This document shows, one piece after another, positions 24,933 to 32,776 of a stretch of 64,000 bases of DNA. Source of the stretch: an uncultured bacterium (GTDB lineage Bacteria > Patescibacteriota > Minisyncoccia > Phycocordibacterales > UBA9973); assembly GCA_937903035.1 (NCBI GenBank), contig CALCZP010000008.1, positions 21,551 through 85,550 on the forward strand. Reading direction: 5' to 3'. The notes below the pieces were generated by a model. It saw only the letters and a program-made list of their open reading frames with translations. It did not search any database and was not told the origin of the DNA. Numbering within the stretch: position 1 is the stretch's first letter; every line of letters begins with the position of its first letter. The translations under genes were made by a program, and so were the position numbers.

Positions 24933-26312
24933 ATGGCACTTTCACTCTACAACACCAAATCTCGATCGATTGAAACATTCACCCCACTTGATCCGACTAC
25001 TGTCACGATGTACGCGTGTGGTCCGACTGTCTACGACAAAACGCATATCGGGCACATGCGCAAATATGTCGGTGATGACATCTTGCGTCGCACGCTCGTT
25101 CTCCTCGGATACAATGTAAAGCATGTGATGAATATCACTGACGTTGGGCATCTCACTGGTGACGAGAATGAGACGGGTGAAGACAAACTTGAAAAAGGTG
25201 CCACAAAAGAAGGTAAAAGTGTCTGGGATATCGCTGCATTGTATACAGAAAACTTTCATACAACGATGCGCGCGATTAACGTACTTCCGCCGATGATTGA
25301 GAGCAAGGCAACTGACCATATCAAAGAAATGATTGCACTCAATGAAGTCCTCGTTGCAAAAGGCTTTGCATATGAGACTGATCAGGCGCTCTACTTTGAT
25401 GTATCCCGTGATCCAAGCTATGGCTCGCTCTCGGGTCAGAAACTCGCTGATAAGCAGACTGCTGTGCGTGACGACGTGGTTGAAGACCCTCAAAAGCGCC
25501 ATCCCGCAGACTTTGCACTATGGTTCAAGCGTATAGGTAAATTTGCGGATCATACGATGCATTGGCCTTCACCTTTCGGTGATGGATTTCCCGGTTGGCA
25601 TATTGAGTGCTCTGCCATGGCAATGCACTATCTCGGCGAAACGATTGATATTCACACTGGCGGTATCGACCACATCCCTGTCCATCACGAGAATGAGATC
25701 GCACAGAGCGAGTGCGCGACTGGTCACCAGTTTGTGAAGTATTGGGTACACCACGACTTTCTCAATGTTGATGGAGAAAAAATGTCCAAAAGTAAACTGA
25801 ATTTCTACACAATCGAAGATATCGTGGCACAAGGCATTGACCCACTTGCTGTGCGTCTCATGTTTATGCAGACGAGCTACCGTAAGCCACTCAACTTTAC
25901 GTGGGATACACTTCGAGTAGCAGAAGCATCACTAACAAAACTTCGCACTTTTGCCTCACATCAAACAGAGATTGGCGCAGTGAATGAAGCTTCGATACAG
26001 TCATTCAAAGCAGCAGTTGGAGACGATCTCAATACTGCGAAAGCTCTTGCGGTAGTATGGGAATTACTCGCAGACACAACAATCTCTGATGCTGACAAAT
26101 GGGCAACACTCCTCGCATTTGATGCGGTGCTCGGACTCAATCTCGAAACAGTATCAAAGTTTACAATCACTGAGAAAGCTGAGCGTTTGGTACTCGAACG
26201 AGATCTTGCGCGAGCAGCCAAGGACTTTACTACCTCAGACAGGCTTCGAGCAGAACTTGAATCGCTCGGATACGAAGTAAATGATACACCACAAGGTACC
26301 AAGCTTTTATAA
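24933..26312 (+). CDS. cysS: Cysteine--tRNA ligase
   Basis: MYACGPTVYDKTHIGHMRKYV (HIGH region), KMSKSKLN (KMSKS), Zn ligands consistent with CysRS. Confidence 0.9.
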   Translation: MALSLYNTKSRSIETFTPLDPTTVTMYACGPTVYDKTHIGHMRKYVGDDILRRTLVLLGYNVKHVMNITDVGHLTGDENETGEDKLEKGATKEGKSVWDIAALYTENFHTTMRAINVLPPMIESKATDHIKEMIALNEVLVAKGFAYETDQALYFDVSRDPSYGSLSGQKLADKQTAVRDDVVEDPQKRHPADFALWFKRIGKFADHTMHWPSPFGDGFPGWHIECSAMAMHYLGETIDIHTGGIDHIPVHHENEIAQSECATGHQFVKYWVHHDFLNVDGEKMSKSKLNFYTIEDIVAQGIDPLAVRLMFMQTSYRKPLNFTWDTLRVAEASLTKLRTFASHQTEIGAVNEASIQSFKAAVGDDLNTAKALAVVWELLADTTISDADKWATLLAFDAVLGLNLETVSKFTITEKAERLVLERDLARAAKDFTTSDRLRAELESLGYEVNDTPQGTKLL

Positions 26313-26345
26313 AAAAATCCCCCAGTTTATTGGGGGATTTTCATT
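26311..26345. terminator. Bidirectional terminator between cysS (+) and histidine kinase (-)
   Basis: AAAAAAATCCCCCAgtttatTGGGGGATTTT. Confidence 0.6.
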
Positions 26346-26352
26346 TAAAATA

Positions 26353-27951
26353 TTAACTTGCAATCACTGATCCAGGGGTCTGCGATGCGACTGCAGGTAT
26401 TACTACTTTAAACGTTGATCCCTTACCAAGCCCTTCCGATTCAATCACGATATCACCCTTGTGTACTCGAGCAATCTCACGCGCCAGATAGAGTCCAAGC
26501 CCTGAGCCACCAGTGTTGAGCTTCCCACCCTCGCCTCGATTGAACTTGCCAAAGAGTTTACCCATAGTTTCAGGAGAAATACCAACACCATTATCAGACA
26601 CTGCAAATACAATGTTTGATCCTTCATGGCGAAGCGAGAGCTTCACAAAACCTTTAGGGGTGTACTTGATACTGTTATCAGTGAGGTTAAGGAAGACTTG
26701 TTTGAGCTTGGTGGGATCGGCATTCACGATGAATTTCTCATACGGCGGAATATCAAGCGTAAGCTCCAACCCCTTGCTCTCAGCAGGAATCTTCATTTCG
26801 TTGTAGAGATCAGTAACACTCTTTGAGAGCTCGGTCGTCATGAACTCGTACTTCATACCACCCTGTTCAATCTTGGATACGTTGAGCAAGTCCTCCACAA
26901 TACTCACGAGTCCCTGCGCAGAGGTATAAATACGCTTGACTGCAACGTCTTGCTTCTCATCCATTTTGCCAAATGAACCTTCAGTCAGCATCGATGCATA
27001 GCCTTTGATTGCCGTGAGTGGGCTGCGAAGCTGGTGAGATGCGAGTGAGAGGAACTCTGTTTTGAGTTTATCGAGCCCTTTGAGCTTGTCATTAAGATCA
27101 GCAAGACCTAAGTTTGAGTGCTCGAGCTGCTCCGTAAGATCTTCAAGGGACTTTGTATGCCTTCTCCAAATCAACAAAATAGCAACCGTAAGGACTGAAA
27201 TTGTGAAAGTAAGAAAGATGATAAAAATAAGGAATGGGAGAAGTGTCTGGGTTGTAATCGTTAGAAAATCATCCGCTTTCACATCAGCAGCCAAGACTGC
27301 AACAGTGTCTCCTTTTTCATCGCGAATCGGCGCATACCCCGTGAGTACTGTTCCATAATCATCAGTATAAAGATCTCGGCTAGTAAGCGGTCCGCTGTAT
27401 GCCTCAAATGCCTCAGGAATATCAACGGCTTCTGCGTAGTCTTGTCCTGGCCACTGTAACTTGTCAGCACCTTCAGGTTCTATCAATCCGTCTCGATTAA
27501 CATCCACACACGTAGCACAAGTAGAAGCAGGAACACTTTCTTCACCAGATGGGAGTGCTATATCATTTGCAAATGGGTTAATGGAATCCGCATCACCAAC
27601 AAATTCCATCTGTGTTGGATCAGTAGCTTTCTTTCGAAAGATATACATGAACACAACATTTTCATTTGCATATTTTGCATTATGCAATTTTTGCACAATA
27701 TGTTGCCATTCAGGTTTCTGCCAATCGTCTTTGGTCTGAAGTGCAGCAAGATCACTTGCATCAATATTTGCTGCCTGTGTTACCGAAATAGTTGTAATGG
27801 CATCACGAAGATTGTCAGTGAGCAACACAACCGTACGCTTATAGAGAATATTTGAAGCAGCAACGATGACTGCAATCACTACAACGAGCAAGCCGACCAC
27901 TATCCATGTTGCTTTTCGTGAATATCCGGTTTTTGTTCGTGTATTTTCCAT
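26353..27951 (-). CDS. Two-component sensor histidine kinase (2 TM, periplasmic sensor domain)
   Basis: H-box LSLASHQLRSPLTAIKGY; HATPase N/G boxes LTDNSIKYTPKG, DNGVGISPE, GGSGLGL; no response regulator adjacent. Confidence 0.85.
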   Translation of the reverse strand: MENTRTKTGYSRKATWIVVGLLVVVIAVIVAASNILYKRTVVLLTDNLRDAITTISVTQAANIDASDLAALQTKDDWQKPEWQHIVQKLHNAKYANENVVFMYIFRKKATDPTQMEFVGDADSINPFANDIALPSGEESVPASTCATCVDVNRDGLIEPEGADKLQWPGQDYAEAVDIPEAFEAYSGPLTSRDLYTDDYGTVLTGYAPIRDEKGDTVAVLAADVKADDFLTITTQTLLPFLIFIIFLTFTISVLTVAILLIWRRHTKSLEDLTEQLEHSNLGLADLNDKLKGLDKLKTEFLSLASHQLRSPLTAIKGYASMLTEGSFGKMDEKQDVAVKRIYTSAQGLVSIVEDLLNVSKIEQGGMKYEFMTTELSKSVTDLYNEMKIPAESKGLELTLDIPPYEKFIVNADPTKLKQVFLNLTDNSIKYTPKGFVKLSLRHEGSNIVFAVSDNGVGISPETMGKLFGKFNRGEGGKLNTGGSGLGLYLAREIARVHKGDIVIESEGLGKGSTFKVVIPAVASQTPGSVIAS

Positions 27952-27955
27952 GCAC

Positions 27956-29824
27956 TTATATTACATCTAAAAGCGAGAGGATACTATCCTTGTCTGCTTC
28001 ATGAAGGAACAAGGTGAGTTTTGGACCAGATTCTTTTCCAAATAACAGCTGATATACGATACTAAAAAATTGTCGCTGATTGTCTTTGTTTTGTGCATCG
28101 CTCGCAGTTGCAACTTTCGGTATAGCGTACAGTGCTGTTTTAAATGAATCCGCAGAAAGACTTTCCCTGTTCTTTATAAGATCAATGAGTTGTCCAATAT
28201 TTTGTTTTTCAAAAATATCAAGCGTATTAGCCATAGCTACATTTTGAGCAGATAAAAGATACCACGAAACATCGGGCGATACAGCAATATAGCGCGACGT
28301 ATCTTGATTAAAGAGTTGTGTATCGAGATATAATTGTCCACGCTCAACGGATTCTAGTTCATTTGATTGGCTGATAGGCATACGCATAATCTTCTGCACG
28401 TTTTTTTCGTGAATATCAGAATAACGATTAAGCACAATATGCTCCCCCGCAGCAACACCTTCTATCATTGGTTTTGCAACATATTCGTATATATCTCGCT
28501 GCGGAAGGGTCGGTAAGGGAATGGTTTTGCCGCCAATACTGAGTGACGACGCACCAACTCCATATCCACCATACGGTTGGGTGCCACGCTCTACTCCTGG
28601 AATGTGAAGATGAGTATTATGCAAAAACGTATCTCGCGGATGAATAACCGTATCATTAATTTTTCTATCAATCAGATTGTGGATATATGAGCTAGATCCA
28701 TACAAGGTGATATACATTGCGTTTTCAAAATATTCTTTTGCTTCAAAATAGGACGCAAGTTCAGCATCAGTAGTATATTTTTGGACAAAAATAATCGGAG
28801 CAAATATTTCTGCGTAGTTTGCACCCAACGAAAGAGGTTTTGTAATAATAGTCGGATAAACAATACAATGACGGGTATCAATCACTCCAGGAGTCGACAT
28901 ATCGATCCATGAACTGTTATCGCAAAGAAACTCCTGGATACGAACAAGATCTTTTGTATCACTCATTGGACCAATCCGGGATGTTTGATCACTATACTCT
29001 CCTATTTTCATAGAAGAAACGGTACTGCGAAGTTGGTTCATAAAGTCCTCATATATCTCTTCGTGAACTAGAATCGCATTCGGGGCGGCACAGTCTTGTC
29101 CTTGATTATAAAATTGCAGTGTTGTAACAGCATCAATCGCTTTTTCAAGATTCGCATCAGCAGCTATTACAAGCGGATTATGTCCTGAGCCGTTAGATAT
29201 GAAAAGTGTTCGACGATCAAAGATTTGCCGAAGCTTTGATGCGTGATGCGATGTGCCCGTAAAAATAACAACATCAGTCACCGGACGTGATGCGGTGGTC
29301 ACAGGGTCAACTCTAAGCGCAGAGCGTTCAATTAAAAATTCAAGCCGTTGCTTGTCTGATACAAAAACATTTGGAAAGTATTTCTTAATCTCAAGAAGTT
29401 CAAGCATTTCTGAAAAGAATGCATGCATGGCATGCGGGATACGAAAATGCACCGCACTTGCCATAAACGATGGGATAATGACAAAGCAAGTAAATGCATA
29501 AAGTGGCTGATTGCGTGGCAAAAAAGCAGCAACCTCTCCTATTCTTAATTTAAAGTAAGCTTCATTTTCATTGAGATTACGGAGAAGATCGAAAGTTCTA
29601 CTAATTTCATCTTCAACAACTTCGTGGCTTTCATACCGCAAAAGGATTGTTTCAAGATGTTCAGTTTTAGTCTCAATAAGATCTGCGAAAGCTCTTGCGC
29701 GAGAGATTATCTCTTTTGGATCAAGTGACGAGTATGGCTGGAAATTAGAATCTGCACCATCACGAGAAGTAGTATGTTCCATAGCGTACAGTATAGCTAA
29801 TACAATAAAAAAAGAAACCTGCAA
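27956..29824 (-). CDS. Aldehyde-dehydrogenase-superfamily protein, divergent (622 aa; catalytic Cys present, general-base Glu absent; acylating/LuxC-like?)
   Basis: LFISNGSGHNPLVIAADANLEKAIDAVTTLQFYNQGQDCAAPNAILVHEEIYEDF aligns with the ALDH ELGGKSP...FxNxGQxCxA core; LELGG Glu replaced by S/N; 4-nt gap to HK. Confidence 0.55.
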   Translation of the reverse strand: MQVSFFIVLAILYAMEHTTSRDGADSNFQPYSSLDPKEIISRARAFADLIETKTEHLETILLRYESHEVVEDEISRTFDLLRNLNENEAYFKLRIGEVAAFLPRNQPLYAFTCFVIIPSFMASAVHFRIPHAMHAFFSEMLELLEIKKYFPNVFVSDKQRLEFLIERSALRVDPVTTASRPVTDVVIFTGTSHHASKLRQIFDRRTLFISNGSGHNPLVIAADANLEKAIDAVTTLQFYNQGQDCAAPNAILVHEEIYEDFMNQLRSTVSSMKIGEYSDQTSRIGPMSDTKDLVRIQEFLCDNSSWIDMSTPGVIDTRHCIVYPTIITKPLSLGANYAEIFAPIIFVQKYTTDAELASYFEAKEYFENAMYITLYGSSSYIHNLIDRKINDTVIHPRDTFLHNTHLHIPGVERGTQPYGGYGVGASSLSIGGKTIPLPTLPQRDIYEYVAKPMIEGVAAGEHIVLNRYSDIHEKNVQKIMRMPISQSNELESVERGQLYLDTQLFNQDTSRYIAVSPDVSWYLLSAQNVAMANTLDIFEKQNIGQLIDLIKNRESLSADSFKTALYAIPKVATASDAQNKDNQRQFFSIVYQLLFGKESGPKLTLFLHEADKDSILSLLDVI

Positions 29825-29847
29825 TATAGAGGTTTCTGTTTCGTAAT

Positions 29848-30240
29848 TTAATTTTTGATTTCAAAGCAAATGATGGCTGCTATTGCGAATACAACTCCTA
29901 GTCCTTGCATTGTAGTGATTTGGATACCCTTTATAAGATCCCAAATCCAAACACCAAGAACATTGGAGAGTAATACGATAACTACTATCATAGTAAGCGA
30001 GTATTCTTTTGGTGCATGACGCATCACCAGACCAAGTCCTGACATAAATATCAGAAACAAGATCGCACTGATAGTCCACCAGCCAAATGTCATTCTTTGT
30101 GCCCAAAGGCTGAGGCATATATCACTGAATGCTCCGAAGACTCCAAGACATATAACTCCAATTAAAAAGTACATGATGTATAGATTTTGTGGTGAATTAT
30201 TATTTGAAATTATAATAACATATATATAATGAAAAGTCAA
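29848..30240 (-). CDS. Small 4-TM membrane protein (SMR/DMT-like?)
   Basis: About 110 aa of four hydrophobic helices from MYFLIGVICLG...; internal start likely. Confidence 0.4.
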   Translation of the reverse strand: MTFHYIYVIIISNNNSPQNLYIMYFLIGVICLGVFGAFSDICLSLWAQRMTFGWWTISAILFLIFMSGLGLVMRHAPKEYSLTMIVVIVLLSNVLGVWIWDLIKGIQITTMQGLGVVFAIAAIICFEIKN

Positions 30241-30285
30241 TAATAAAAACAGCCCTTCATACTTCTATAAAGGGCTTGTAATTGG

Positions 30286-30906
30286 TTACTTTTTTGATTG
30301 TACTGCGAGCGTTGCACCGATGCTAACACCATTTCCCCATCCAGCCAGCCAGAGGATCTTGCGAACTTTGTCACAACAGAATGAGTACTGTAGCCGTGGA
30401 CCGGTCACGCCATAGCGCTGACTGTGGATACCAATACCAATTGACTGGTTGAACGGATAGTACACTGCATAGCCGAGCCACCAATTCCCCCAAGTCTTTG
30501 CATACGAATAGTTTGCATTGATCATGAGCTTGTTTTTCGCACGAGGTTCATCAGCCTTGGTTTCCAAGAAATAGTATGAATTCAAGAACGTGACATTGCC
30601 ACCTTTTGAAAATTCAAATCCAGGACCAATACCAATTTCATGATAGGTACTCCACACTTGTTTTGCGTAAAGTACACCAGGGCTCACTGATGATGCATCT
30701 GGTTCAAATGAGCCTTCAAGAAACACTCCCCAATTTCCCGTTCCAAATGTTTTGCTCACAAATGGATTTACAAAGGTATAGGGCTTTTCTCCAGAAGAGG
30801 ATTTGAACCTGGTATGAGAAGCATCGAGGCTTCCGTACCAGAGGGGTTCTTGGCTATATGCGGCAGTAGTTACAAAGAATGAAACGAAAAATAGTATTTT
30901 TTTCAT
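30286..30906 (-). CDS. Secreted aromatic/Gly-rich protein (206 aa), beta-rich porin-like composition
   Basis: Signal peptide MKKILFFVSFFVTTAAYSQ; alternating aromatic residues, many W/Y/G; no motif recognised. Confidence 0.45.
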   Translation of the reverse strand: MKKILFFVSFFVTTAAYSQEPLWYGSLDASHTRFKSSSGEKPYTFVNPFVSKTFGTGNWGVFLEGSFEPDASSVSPGVLYAKQVWSTYHEIGIGPGFEFSKGGNVTFLNSYYFLETKADEPRAKNKLMINANYSYAKTWGNWWLGYAVYYPFNQSIGIGIHSQRYGVTGPRLQYSFCCDKVRKILWLAGWGNGVSIGATLAVQSKK

Positions 30907-30957
30907 GCTATATGTTTTTCAACATAATATCATGAATCATATATTTGTCAATATATT

Positions 30958-32013
30958 CTACAACACCTGATCTATAACTCCCCCTCCCACAAGAACAGTG
31001 TCTTTATATAGAACGAGTGACTGTCCAAGCGAGATTACACCATCATATGAAAGGCGCACATGGGTCTCATCAACAATACAGACTGGAAGTTGTTCACCGT
31101 GATAGCGGATTTGGGCAGTGTATAAGGCATGATCAGCAGTCGTTTCAAGCCAGTTTGTATCACGAAGCACAAGTGTCACTTCCCCATTTTTTGCATCGAC
31201 ATTCTTTGCATTATGTGAGACCACGAGAATATTCCGTTCAATGTCTTTACCAACGACATAGTACGGCTTCTGATCAGTACTTCCTTTGGTAATACGAAAG
31301 CCATGGCGTTCACCAAGCGTATGAAAATACACCCCATCATGCTCACCTACTTTCTCGCCTCGCGTATTAACGACATCACCAGGCTTTTCATCAATATAGT
31401 GTGCGAGAAATTCGCGCATGTCGACTTCGCCAAGGAAACAAATACCCTGACTGTCTTTTTTAGTTGCTGTCATAAGACCTGCACGCTGCGCAATCGCTCT
31501 CACTTCTGGCTTTTGAAGATGCCCGACCGGAAAGAATGCACGCTTGAGGTCGTCATTGGTAAGCATCCAGAGAAAGTATGACTGATCCTTGCTCGCATCA
31601 ATACCCTGCACAAGCTTTCCATCGATGAGCTGCGCATAATGTCCTGTTGCAAGCGCATCTGCGCCGTGAGATTTAGCGTACTGCCACATCGCACCAAATT
31701 TCACAACACGGTTGCAGAGCACATCAGGGTTCGGCGTACGACCGGCACGGTATTCACTGATCATATAGTCAGCTACCCCTTGTTTGTACTGATCAGTCGC
31801 ATCGAGAAAATGAAATGGAATATCAAGTGCAGCGCAGACACGCATTGCATCGCGCTTCTCATCGATCCAGGTACAAGGGATCCACTCAGGTGACCATGTT
31901 TTAACAAAGATGCCATGAACCTCATGACCCTGCTCTTTCAACAGATATGCGGCAACTGACGAGTCTACCCCGCCTGATATTCCAACAAAGATTTTCTGCA
32001 CCATCGTGCTCAT
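30958..32013 (-). CDS. mnmA: tRNA-specific 2-thiouridylase MnmA
   Basis: PP-loop VGISGGVDSSVAAYLL; catalytic Cys region; 351 aa. Confidence 0.9.
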   Translation of the reverse strand: MSTMVQKIFVGISGGVDSSVAAYLLKEQGHEVHGIFVKTWSPEWIPCTWIDEKRDAMRVCAALDIPFHFLDATDQYKQGVADYMISEYRAGRTPNPDVLCNRVVKFGAMWQYAKSHGADALATGHYAQLIDGKLVQGIDASKDQSYFLWMLTNDDLKRAFFPVGHLQKPEVRAIAQRAGLMTATKKDSQGICFLGEVDMREFLAHYIDEKPGDVVNTRGEKVGEHDGVYFHTLGERHGFRITKGSTDQKPYYVVGKDIERNILVVSHNAKNVDAKNGEVTLVLRDTNWLETTADHALYTAQIRYHGEQLPVCIVDETHVRLSYDGVISLGQSLVLYKDTVLVGGGVIDQVL

Positions 32014-32083: not shown

Positions 32084-32776
32084 ATGAACATACAAAAAAA
32101 CATACTTTTATTTGACTCAGACATCCTGGACACAGATGAGGATATACATCCTATAGAACTATTGTTTGTTAGAGATATGGTGACTTTTGTACAAGATAGC
32201 AATTCATTTAAAGAGCAAATTGCAAATAAATCTTGGGACATTATTTTTATAAATTTTCAAACAAGACTATTCTTAAAGATAGAAGATGCTCAATTAGATG
32301 AATTTGTACAAATTGTTATCGCCTCTCAACCAGGTAGTTGCTGCAATGTAGCTATTACAAATGATAGAGATCAAATCTCTATGCTGAAAGAAAAAGGGTT
32401 TAGTATTTTCTCTAAAAAATATAACATTGCCAGAATTAGAGAAGAATTTAAAATCTTTCAAAAAGTTTTAACGACTAGTGATATCCAAGAATATGTAGCC
32501 GACTATCATCATATGTCAGCTACAAAACTTCTAGAGAAAACTAGGAATAGAAACATTGTAGAGCCACGACAAATAGCAATGTATCTCTCGCACCATCTGG
32601 TAACAAAAAATTTAAAAAAAGTAGCTAGTGACTTTTATTTAAAAAACCATACCAGTACTATTCATGCACTACGAACAGTTAACGATCTCATGGATACAAA
32701 TTCTGCTATAAAAGAAAAGGTTGATTTTTTATTCTACAATCTTCGAACTGGTCTATATCTAAAAGCCTCCTTGTGA
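32084..32776 (+). CDS. Atypical receiver-like domain fused to DnaA domain-IV-like HTH (230 aa), AT-rich gene
   Basis: C-terminus IVEPRQIAMYLSHHLVTKNLKKVASDFYLKNHTSTIHALRTVNDLMDTN parallels DnaA domain IV; N-terminus NILLFDSD...WDIIFINFQ...VQIVIASQ...FSIFSKK resembles REC beta-strands with Asn at the phospho-Asp position. Confidence 0.5.
   Translation: MNIQKNILLFDSDILDTDEDIHPIELLFVRDMVTFVQDSNSFKEQIANKSWDIIFINFQTRLFLKIEDAQLDEFVQIVIASQPGSCCNVAITNDRDQISMLKEKGFSIFSKKYNIARIREEFKIFQKVLTTSDIQEYVADYHHMSATKLLEKTRNRNIVEPRQIAMYLSHHLVTKNLKKVASDFYLKNHTSTIHALRTVNDLMDTNSAIKEKVDFLFYNLRTGLYLKASL

Follow-up and report, generated by a model that had tools for sequence, protein, structure and literature searches.

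A conserved three-gene operon of Paceibacteria-type Patescibacteria encodes an aldehyde dehydrogenase-superfamily enzyme with a tail derived from class I lysyl-tRNA synthetase

We analysed a 64-kb stretch of contig CALCZP010000008.1 (GenBank assembly GCA_937903035.1; hereafter, the window) from an uncultured bacterium of the Patescibacteriota, with the focus on a cluster of minus-strand genes. The original prediction, made from the sequence of the window, described four open reading frames (ORFs) here, and all four are real: a sensor histidine kinase gene (26353-27951, 532 aa), a gene for a protein similar to aldehyde dehydrogenase (ALDH) (longest ORF 27956-29824, 622 aa), a gene for a small protein with four transmembrane (TM) segments (longest ORF 29848-30240, 130 aa), and a gene for a 206-aa protein with a signal-peptide-like N-terminus (30286-30906). 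The results of this study demonstrated that three of these genes, those for the SMR/DMT-like 4-TM protein, the ALDH-superfamily enzyme, and the membrane-bound sensor kinase, form an operon that is conserved in Paceibacteria-type Patescibacteria, and that the C-terminal ca. 100 aa of the ALDH-like protein derive from the C-terminal subdomain of a lysyl-tRNA synthetase belonging to class I (LysRS-I).

The ALDH-like gene had been given a length of 622 aa. Its TTG start would prepend 14 hydrophobic residues to the 608-aa product that is called from ATG 29782 in an identical public contig (101 kb; ENA metagenome assembly ERZ650244), and conservation among 120 homologues begins only from residue ca. 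47. Because of the gene calls and this onset of conservation, the 608-aa product was favoured and its numbering is used below. The 4-TM gene is called from ATG 30174 in the same public contig, giving 108 aa (29848..30174, minus strand), and this is probably its start; the 130-aa version, from TTG 30240, overlaps a promoter-like site. The promoter-like sites given here are matches to a sigma-70-type consensus, which is not proof of function. The site in question (TTGACT-17 nt-TATTAT with a TG extension; 30212..30240, minus strand; 10/12 in the consensus scan) lies ca. 38 nt ahead of the 4-TM ATG and directly past the terminator of the 206-aa gene, and is proposed as the start of the three-gene operon. 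The terminator, which marks the upstream boundary of the unit, is an intrinsic one (30251..30276, minus strand) with an 11-bp stem, a 4-nt loop, and a U-run; its RNA fold has a free energy of -16.6 kcal/mol (z -4.4), and 0/200 shuffled sequences were equally stable. The downstream boundary is a bidirectional intrinsic terminator (26313..26342) between the stop codons of the kinase gene and of the convergent cysS, in which an A-run and a U-run border a G+C-rich stem of 12 bp (-21.9 kcal/mol, z -4.4; 0/200 shuffles equally stable). The only faint Rfam match, a sub-threshold one to Phe_leader at 26309-26364 (minus strand; 30.7 bits, gathering score 55, E 0.063), most likely arose by chance from this hairpin and its U-run.

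Within the unit, a gap of 4 nt separates the stop of the ALDH-like gene from the start of the kinase gene. Between the 4-TM and ALDH-like genes there is a weak hairpin with U7 behind it (29808..29842, minus strand; -10.5 to -12.1 kcal/mol, z -2.2; 5/200 shuffles equally stable), and a partial terminator or attenuator is possible at this position. This hairpin is not conserved, since the two genes abut or overlap in other loci. Outside the unit, the 206-aa gene is preceded by a promoter-like site of its own (TTGACA-16-TATTAT with a TG extension; 30924-30951, minus strand; 11/12), which is situated between this gene and the upstream mnmA (30958-32013). Co-transcription of the cluster with mnmA, as originally suggested, is at odds with this arrangement, in which a promoter-like site stands ahead of the 206-aa gene, a terminator after it, and a second promoter-like site before the 4-TM gene. 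Because of these signals around the 206-aa gene, and because neither this gene nor mnmA is conserved at other loci, the transcription unit is predicted to consist of three genes, not four.

In the first seven loci collected, the homologues of which share 50-100% identity, the ALDH-like gene was followed by a HisKA/HATPase_c kinase gene (486-532 aa) in 7/7, and a small protein of ca. 108-127 aa without a Pfam family was encoded upstream of the ALDH-like gene in six. A wider scan using one genome per GTDB species gave 80 loci, including 40 species-level loci with the architecture of the window. At 32 of these 40 Patescibacteria loci, the next gene downstream on the same strand encodes a kinase of the same family, and at 34 such a gene occurs no more than three genes away; at the conserved loci, the kinase family match spans the whole 499-position profile, outside domain included. 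An SMR-like gene lay directly upstream of the ALDH-like gene in 19/40, and any SMR-like protein or protein with at least three TM segments was encoded upstream in 26/40; in six loci, a different multi-TM family of ca. 208-228 aa takes the place of the SMR-like gene. In one locus (L007), the ALDH-like and kinase genes overlap. The neighbourhood is thus conserved with respect to the kinase and SMR-like genes. In contrast, the 206-aa gene, which had been included in the co-occurrence to be checked for all four genes, and mnmA stand beside the unit only in the window's own species and were absent at all other loci examined. Going by their labels, most of the homologous loci are Patescibacterial (Paceibacterota, Parcubacteria, Zambryskibacteria, Nomurabacteria, Andersenbacteria, and others), and the few other labels look like mis-binned contigs.

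The ALDH-like protein passes the Pfam cutoff for Aldedh (E 1.4e-29), and its catalytic region comprises aa 1-445 of 608 (28448..29782, minus strand). An AlphaFold model based on 120 homologues reached a pLDDT of 91.7 and a pTM of 0.88. In a Foldseek search, ca. 450 columns of this model aligned with the full-length structures of ALDH2, GapN, P5CDH, and SSADH (E ca. 1e-18; target-normalised template modelling score 0.6-0.7). Because the alignment covers full-length ALDHs, the fold is complete, with its cofactor-binding, catalytic, and oligomerisation parts, and the protein has no N-terminal extension; the ca. 150 aa originally described as such are the diverged N-terminal half of the fold. Residues invariant in the 120 homologues include N91, N197, G200-H-N-P203, Q229-D-C231, E325, and F327. 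Asn91 corresponds to the ALDH residue Asn169, Cys231 (YNQGQDC; codon 29090-29092) to Cys302, and Glu325/Phe327 to Glu399/Phe401; QGQDC231 aligned with QGQIC of 4DNG, and LPRN91QP with LPFNFP of 8HAP. The position of Glu268, the general base of hydrolytic ALDHs, is occupied by Asn197 (codon 29192-29194; 'isNGSGHNP' against 'lELGGNNP'). R/K114 is found at the end of the strand that carries Lys192 in ALDHs, and the nucleotide-binding loop reads FTGTxxHA, in which the second Gly of GxTxxG is lost.

This arrangement extends beyond the window-type proteins. Asn197 was present in 43/44 further clade representatives of other architectures or phyla, the remaining one (P0237, a fusion described below) having Ser. 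The active-site signature (N91, R/K114, N197, GHNP, QDC231, E325) is kept across members from Patescibacteria, Proteobacteria, Actinobacteria, and metagenomes with rare substitutions, such as Gly in place of Q229 in P0193, and on correct alignment the general-base Glu is absent in every member. Loss of Glu268 with retention of the Cys is typical of ALDHs that do not hydrolyse the thioester, namely acylating dehydrogenases and reductases, and the resemblance to such members that was noticed originally, together with the retained Cys and the replaced Glu, is borne out. The motif NGSGHNP also resembles GAGAGNPP, which we take to be the pattern of acylating ALDHs. EutE/PduP/AdhE-type enzymes, LuxC, and ProA likewise have the ALDH fold and the Cys nucleophile without the Glu268 general base. 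Unlike these families, however, the enzyme studied here has the NQGQDC motif of the classical oxidising type and finds its best profile, sequence, and fold matches among classical oxidising ALDHs; furthermore, a domain derived from an aminoacyl-tRNA synthetase occurs in none of them. A relationship to LuxC had been raised, and the LuxC profile (PF05893) gave no match in the window protein at E ≤ 0.01; some other clade members showed weak LuxC matches in Pfam (E 5e-6 to 5e-4), always below their Aldedh matches. No match to the glutamyl-tRNA reductase (GluTR) family or fold was obtained for the ALDH-like protein in the Pfam, NCBIfam, PDB sequence, and Foldseek searches. The enzyme is a member of a distinct, uncharacterised ALDH clade that keeps the residues for thioester formation and has Asn, or rarely Ser, in place of Glu268.

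The large C-terminal extension that had been noted is ca. 185 aa long. It consists of a poorly conserved linker (aa 446-499; 28286..28447, minus strand; pLDDT 50-88) and a LysRS-I-like tail (27959..28285, minus strand) with the motif FFxxVYQLLFGKxSGPKLxxFL. When searched as a single sequence with phmmer, the tail matched residues 445-517 of 1IRX, the class I LysRS of Pyrococcus horikoshii (E 1.8e-4), and a family profile matched residues 443-517 of the same structure (E 7.7e-9) as its only PDB match. A separate model of the C-terminal region had a pLDDT of >95 over the final 100 aa, and with this model Foldseek returned 1IRX first (probability 1.0; root mean square deviation 2.9 Å over 102 columns), followed by many bacterial GluRS structures (ca. 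100 columns each, probability up to 0.99), the aligned portion of which is taken to be the C-terminal anticodon-binding subdomain. A LysRS-I profile built in this study matched at positions 409-510 of 510 (E 4e-16). In four homologues (L027, L013, L039, and L012), the match extends back into the linker, to profile positions ca. 340-360. Five tail residues, F573, Y577, G586, P587, and F592, are invariant in the 120 sequences, and the same motif positions are conserved in real LysRS-I; the pattern of the tail is nearest to that of Patescibacterial LysRS-I tails. Going by the structural literature on GluRS and LysRS-I, the C-terminal subdomain of LysRS-I presumably binds the anticodon. Linker and tail are basic across the family (median isoelectric point ca. 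9.3), and the ALDH part is neutral.

The homology with LysRS-I is confined to this subdomain. The catalytic domain of LysRS-I is missing, and the window protein has no Pfam match to tRNA-synt_1f, no Rossmann domain, no HIGH, and no KMSKS. Window-type proteins, therefore, cannot be synthetases, even though some public annotations label them 'lysyl-tRNA synthetase class 1'. A search of the whole window with the LysRS-I profile found no LysRS-I gene. Because the extension proved to be a LysRS-I remnant, the module was moved from the envelope-associated metabolite module first imagined towards a tRNA(Lys)-linked enzyme.

Complete LysRS-I sequences are joined to the same ALDH domain elsewhere. In Patescibacteria, four loci (L049, L050, L052, and L059) encode an ALDH-like domain followed by a full LysRS-I (tRNA-synt_1f, E 1e-85 to 1e-110), and in another (L053), a LysRS-I gene is located directly downstream of the ALDH-like gene. 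The motifs VHFGN and KMSGSKGN in L049, L050, L059, and L053 are identical to those of stand-alone Patescibacterial LysRS-I, and both are degenerate in L052. Fusions in the reversed order, LysRS-I followed by the ALDH-like domain (936-991 aa, with PHIGT and KKISKSKGN), were found in Pseudomonas (cichorii, capsici, and the koreensis group), Photorhabdus, Xenorhabdus, and Saccharothrix (L060 6315-9212, L080 6381-9269, L068 6375-9263, and ca. 20 further loci among L061-L087). P. asymbiotica, Kibdelosporangium, Crossiella, and Saccharothrix have ALDH-only genes directly preceded by a LysRS-I gene, and the LysRS-I and ALDH-like parts were called as overlapping ORFs in Brenneria. The N-terminal translation obtained for Actinosynnema (L083) proved to be an artefact of a wrong reading frame.

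A clade search of 1.84 billion representatives gave 324 members at E ≤ 1e-30. Some of them join the ALDH-like domain to a class II LysRS (P0237: NF001756, E 3e-61 over positions 4-469 of 488, against 7e-9 for AspRS), and others (P0249 and P0260) carry the class II anticodon-binding OB region only. Because two unrelated LysRS folds have been fused with retention of their anticodon-binding pieces, the shared partner is probably tRNA(Lys) or Lys-tRNA(Lys) rather than a protein fold. The window protein is a reduced form, in which the catalytic core of LysRS-I has been lost and the C-terminal anticodon-binding subdomain has been kept. Databases name the clade members generically as 'aldehyde dehydrogenase family protein' or 'lysine--tRNA ligase'.

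The surroundings of the fusions differ from those in the window. In Pseudomonas, Thiomonas, Xenorhabdus, Brenneria, and P. asymbiotica, the fusion is followed by a transporter gene of one orthologous MFS family, and in Saccharothrix a match to this family was found just downstream of the ALDH-like gene. Saccharothrix luteola has a gene for a SARP-type regulator directly upstream, and in Kibdelosporangium a gene for an MmyB-like regulator is nearby; most actinomycete neighbours were without Pfam matches, as simple ORF calling is probably unreliable at high G+C. These contexts fit specialised small-molecule production and export. Among single representatives, the P0249 gene (L090 4269-6938) is on a Gram-negative contig and adjoins TonB-dependent receptor genes, and P0297 (1294 aa) has a class I/II aminotransferase (pyridoxal phosphate) domain ahead of the ALDH-like domain. 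The contig of P0240 (L091 6001-7887) carries fungal-type transcription-factor genes, from which the clade may reach into eukaryotes.

The small protein shows four TM segments by hydropathy and aligned with the small proteins encoded upstream of the ALDH-like gene in five other loci, indicating one family, of which the window copy is the most divergent (20-26% identity). Pfam matches of this family were below thresholds: TMEM234 in 3/6 members (best E 2e-4), Multi_Drug_Res in 3/6 (E 0.012), and EamA, which all belong to the DMT/SMR clan. SMR and small DMT proteins (EmrE, ArnE/ArnF, and TMEM234) are likewise ca. 110 aa long with four TM segments. However, the window's own copy had no Pfam match to TMEM234, SMR, or EamA, and comparison of the family with EmrE by hhalign gave a non-significant probability of 1.7%. 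The protein is described as SMR/DMT-like, a putative exporter or flippase.

The kinase consists of TM1, an extracytoplasmic domain of ca. 199 aa (aa ca. 29-227; nt ca. 27271-27867), TM2, HisKA (aa 297-364; E 3e-17), and HATPase_c (aa 412-520; E 3.8e-25), and its translation contains the H-box SHQLRSPL and the N- and G-boxes NLTDNSIKY, DNGVGI, and GGSGLGL. All 39 full-length members of the family have two TM segments flanking an outside domain of ca. 190 aa. This outside domain is better conserved than the ALDH-like enzyme (mean column identity 67% vs 55%) and includes an invariant DxNxDG pattern (VDVNRDGxIEPDG), which is read as a possible EF-hand or dockerin-like metal (calcium) loop; in the window kinase, a 19-aa insertion with two Cys residues occurs just ahead of it. 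The family profile of the outside domain found no sequence relatives in the PDB, and only a faint match to sCache_3_2 was seen (E 0.084). The kinase had been described as an orphan with a sensor of about this size, which agrees with our results: no receiver domain was detected anywhere in the window by phmmer with CheY, PhoB, and Spo0F (E ≤ 10), and among the related loci examined, only three distinct ones (L007/L041, L019, and L057) encode a receiver no more than three genes from the ALDH-like gene, each as a stand-alone protein of ca. 125 aa. The regulator proposed for it, a DnaA-C protein, did not fare as well (see below). In the signal-synthase and orphan-kinase pairs cqsA-cqsS and luxM-luxN, an enzyme gene likewise adjoins the gene of a sensor kinase in the membrane, and the response regulator is encoded elsewhere; the enzymes and kinases of those systems are unrelated to those described here, and the comparison may serve as an analogy only.

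Further synthetase genes occur around the unit. Genes of the tRNA-synt_1b (TrpRS/TyrRS) type were found a few genes downstream of the kinase gene in L004, L005, L006, L008, and L009, and ca. 7 kb downstream in the window; a class II D/K/N-type synthetase gene is often also downstream of the kinase gene in these Patescibacteria loci. These may reflect conserved synteny only. In two window-type genomes, a stand-alone LysRS-I gene is located two to three genes from the ALDH-like gene (L005/L036 3604-5169, minus strand; L051 3963-5528, plus strand).

Starting from the gene anatomy, its conservation, the active-site signature, and the LysRS ancestry of the tail, we infer tRNA binding, substrate, reaction direction, export, and the signal of the kinase as follows. 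The encoded protein would be a thioester-forming, non-hydrolytic ALDH-type enzyme acting on lysyl-tRNA(Lys), probably as a reductase, the product of which is exported and possibly sensed by the kinase; we assign this reading a probability of roughly 45%. The tail would dock tRNA(Lys), and the catalytic Cys would attack the aminoacyl ester of Lys-tRNA(Lys) that had been charged by the housekeeping LysRS. NAD(P)H would then reduce the lysyl-thioester, yielding an amino-aldehyde derived from lysine, the small transporter would move the cationic product or a derivative across the membrane, and the co-transcribed kinase may sense the product, or a related envelope cue, outside the cell. In GluTR, the catalytic Cys attacks the ester of an aminoacyl-tRNA, and the resulting thioester is reduced by NADPH to an amino-aldehyde; the partner of GluTR is the class I synthetase GluRS, the closest relative of LysRS-I. 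The chemistry proposed here would follow the same logic as that of GluTR (HemA), by analogy, with an unrelated fold (that of ALDH) and with lysine instead of glutamate.

A precedent for a dedicated LysRS fused to an enzyme that consumes its Lys-tRNA is LysX, the MprF-LysRS fusion of actinomycetes, and the full ALDH-LysRS fusions follow the same logic. In LysX, by contrast, the Lys-tRNA is consumed not by an ALDH but by a GNAT-like transferase that aminoacylates lipids and comes with a flippase, and the LysRS is of class II only. LysX is mentioned in PMC2922099, which treats other proteins similar to aminoacyl-tRNA synthetases, not the ALDH-LysRS type.

Several observations weigh against the proposed action on Lys-tRNA(Lys). 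The tail and linker of the window protein itself are acidic (isoelectric point ca. 5.0-5.2, net charge -4 and -2), which is a poor fit to RNA binding, and no tRNA(Lys) gene, lysine riboswitch, or T-box was found near the operon or the fusion loci examined. The link with tRNA(Lys) is not universal in the clade, because a Pol-beta nucleotidyltransferase domain stands in place of the LysRS piece in 31/150 clade representatives (P0229, P0240, P0252, P0255, and P0291 among them) and many of the 150 are without any extra domain. None of the full ALDH-LysRS-I fusions (0/4) is accompanied by the kinase and SMR-like genes, which go with the reduced form only, so that the kinase link may belong to a function that has departed from an ancestral role coupled to tRNA. 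The substrate, cofactor, and direction, moreover, are drawn from domain-fusion logic and from the missing Glu.

Some of these points lend weight to the view, which we regard as rather doubtful, that the tail is a relic serving only in folding, oligomerisation, or protein contact, and that the enzyme is an acylating ALDH dependent on CoA, phosphate, or a carrier, or an acyl reductase, acting on a free small molecule, while the kinase controls the operon by way of a response regulator at a distance. Replacement of Glu268 by Asn with the Cys kept would suit any non-hydrolytic ALDH, the tail in the window is acidic, the LysRS piece is missing from many clade members, the full fusions lack the kinase and SMR-like genes, and some clade members match LuxC weakly. 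However, the tail is under clear purifying selection, as its five residues invariant in 120 sequences attest, and fusions to two unrelated LysRS classes with retention of anticodon-binding parts are hard to explain without a link to tRNA(Lys) or lysine. Such a link is also contained in a quite improbable scheme of oxidative acyl transfer, in which an aldehyde would be converted to an acyl-thioester and passed to the amino group of lysine or Lys-tRNA(Lys), giving an N-acyl-lysine derivative. The linkage with LysRS is equally compatible with lysine as the acceptor, and this scheme agrees with the NQGQDC motif, which is of the classical oxidising type, as are the proteins that match best in sequence and fold. 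Among the leading fold matches are 4-hydroxybenzaldehyde dehydrogenase variants co-crystallised with amide products according to their PDB descriptions. In the loci examined, however, no candidate gene for supply of the aldehyde is conserved nearby, and we know of no natural ALDH that performs acyl transfer to lysine.

The coupling with the kinase can also be taken to mean that the ALDH-like protein acts mainly as the kinase's sensing subunit in the cytoplasm, informing it of NAD(P)H, of an aldehyde, or of how far tRNA(Lys) is charged or available. GCN2, in which a HisRS-like domain senses uncharged tRNA, is a loose parallel. The gene coupling is tight (the 4-nt gap here and the overlap in L007), adjacency is kept in 32/40 loci, the association with the kinase appears only after loss of the LysRS catalytic core, the kinase is otherwise without a cytoplasmic sensor, and the adjacent regulators, where present, are the stand-alone receivers mentioned above. 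This is nevertheless distinctly unlikely, since the conserved catalytic residues point to a working enzyme rather than a pseudoenzyme, and a conserved membrane transporter in the operon fits metabolite handling better. Finally, the four-gene envelope module of the original prediction, co-transcribed with mnmA and with the DnaA-C protein as the regulator of the kinase, is suggested by the short intergenic distances and the shared strand, and has become very improbable. A promoter-like site of its own and a strong terminator frame the 206-aa gene. Out of 5.8 billion protein clusters, just four are related to its product (66-100% identity), which belongs to no Pfam family and is a lineage ORFan in a separate transcription unit. 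The DnaA-C protein (32084-32776, plus strand, 230 aa) has a C-terminal Bac_DnaA_C helix-turn-helix (E 1e-18), and no family was detectable by Pfam in its N-terminal half of ca. 130 aa. The suggestion that this half is an atypical receiver was rejected, as it had no Pfam match and no phmmer similarity to CheY, PhoB, or Spo0F, and its gene stands beside the unit in contigs of the window's own species only.

Two side observations concern the 206-aa protein. It is rich in aromatic residues with an alternating pattern and looks like a beta-barrel, which would be odd as the bacterium is thought to have no outer membrane. A protein of the same length encoded upstream in L008 was considered as its homologue and dismissed, as alignment gave no homology; the L008 protein is a member of the other multi-TM family, the one encoded at six loci where the SMR-like gene would stand.

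We found no published description of the three-gene combination, which agrees with the original view that it had not been described as a unit, and none of the clade, of fusions between ALDH and LysRS, or of an aminoacyl-tRNA reductase of the ALDH type; this search covered full-text literature, with most subscription journals outside its coverage, and absence from it is not proof. What is encoded here is a new combination of known kinds, i.e. an ALDH-superfamily enzyme, a two-component kinase, and a small transporter, and there is a real chance that the enzyme represents a new class. To our knowledge, the reduction catalysed by GluTR in tetrapyrrole synthesis is the only reduction of an aminoacyl-tRNA. 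If action on Lys-tRNA(Lys) proves correct, the clade would provide a second, structurally independent solution to this reaction. In the broadest form of this idea, which we consider unlikely, the whole clade would be a class of aminoacyl-tRNA-consuming enzymes not recognised before, namely lysyl-tRNA reductases with an ALDH fold, which draw Lys-tRNA(Lys) away from translation, and in Paceibacteria the enzyme, mini-exporter, and kinase would make up an autocrine or quorum-type module that produces, exports, and senses a lysine-derived amino-aldehyde or its cyclised or dimerised product. This would be the first such module proposed for host-dependent, genome-reduced bacteria.

The hypothesis is directly testable, since full LysRS-ALDH fusions are present in the culturable and genetically tractable genera Pseudomonas and Photorhabdus. 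The genomes of Patescibacteria are tiny and encode little metabolism, and a protein of ca. 610 aa that is >50% identical across many lineages and wired to a kinase, thus, points to an important role that has not been described. Should the proposed reaction on Lys-tRNA(Lys) hold, it would open a new route from charged tRNA into small-molecule synthesis and could reveal a signalling or envelope-modifying molecule of these uncultured bacteria.

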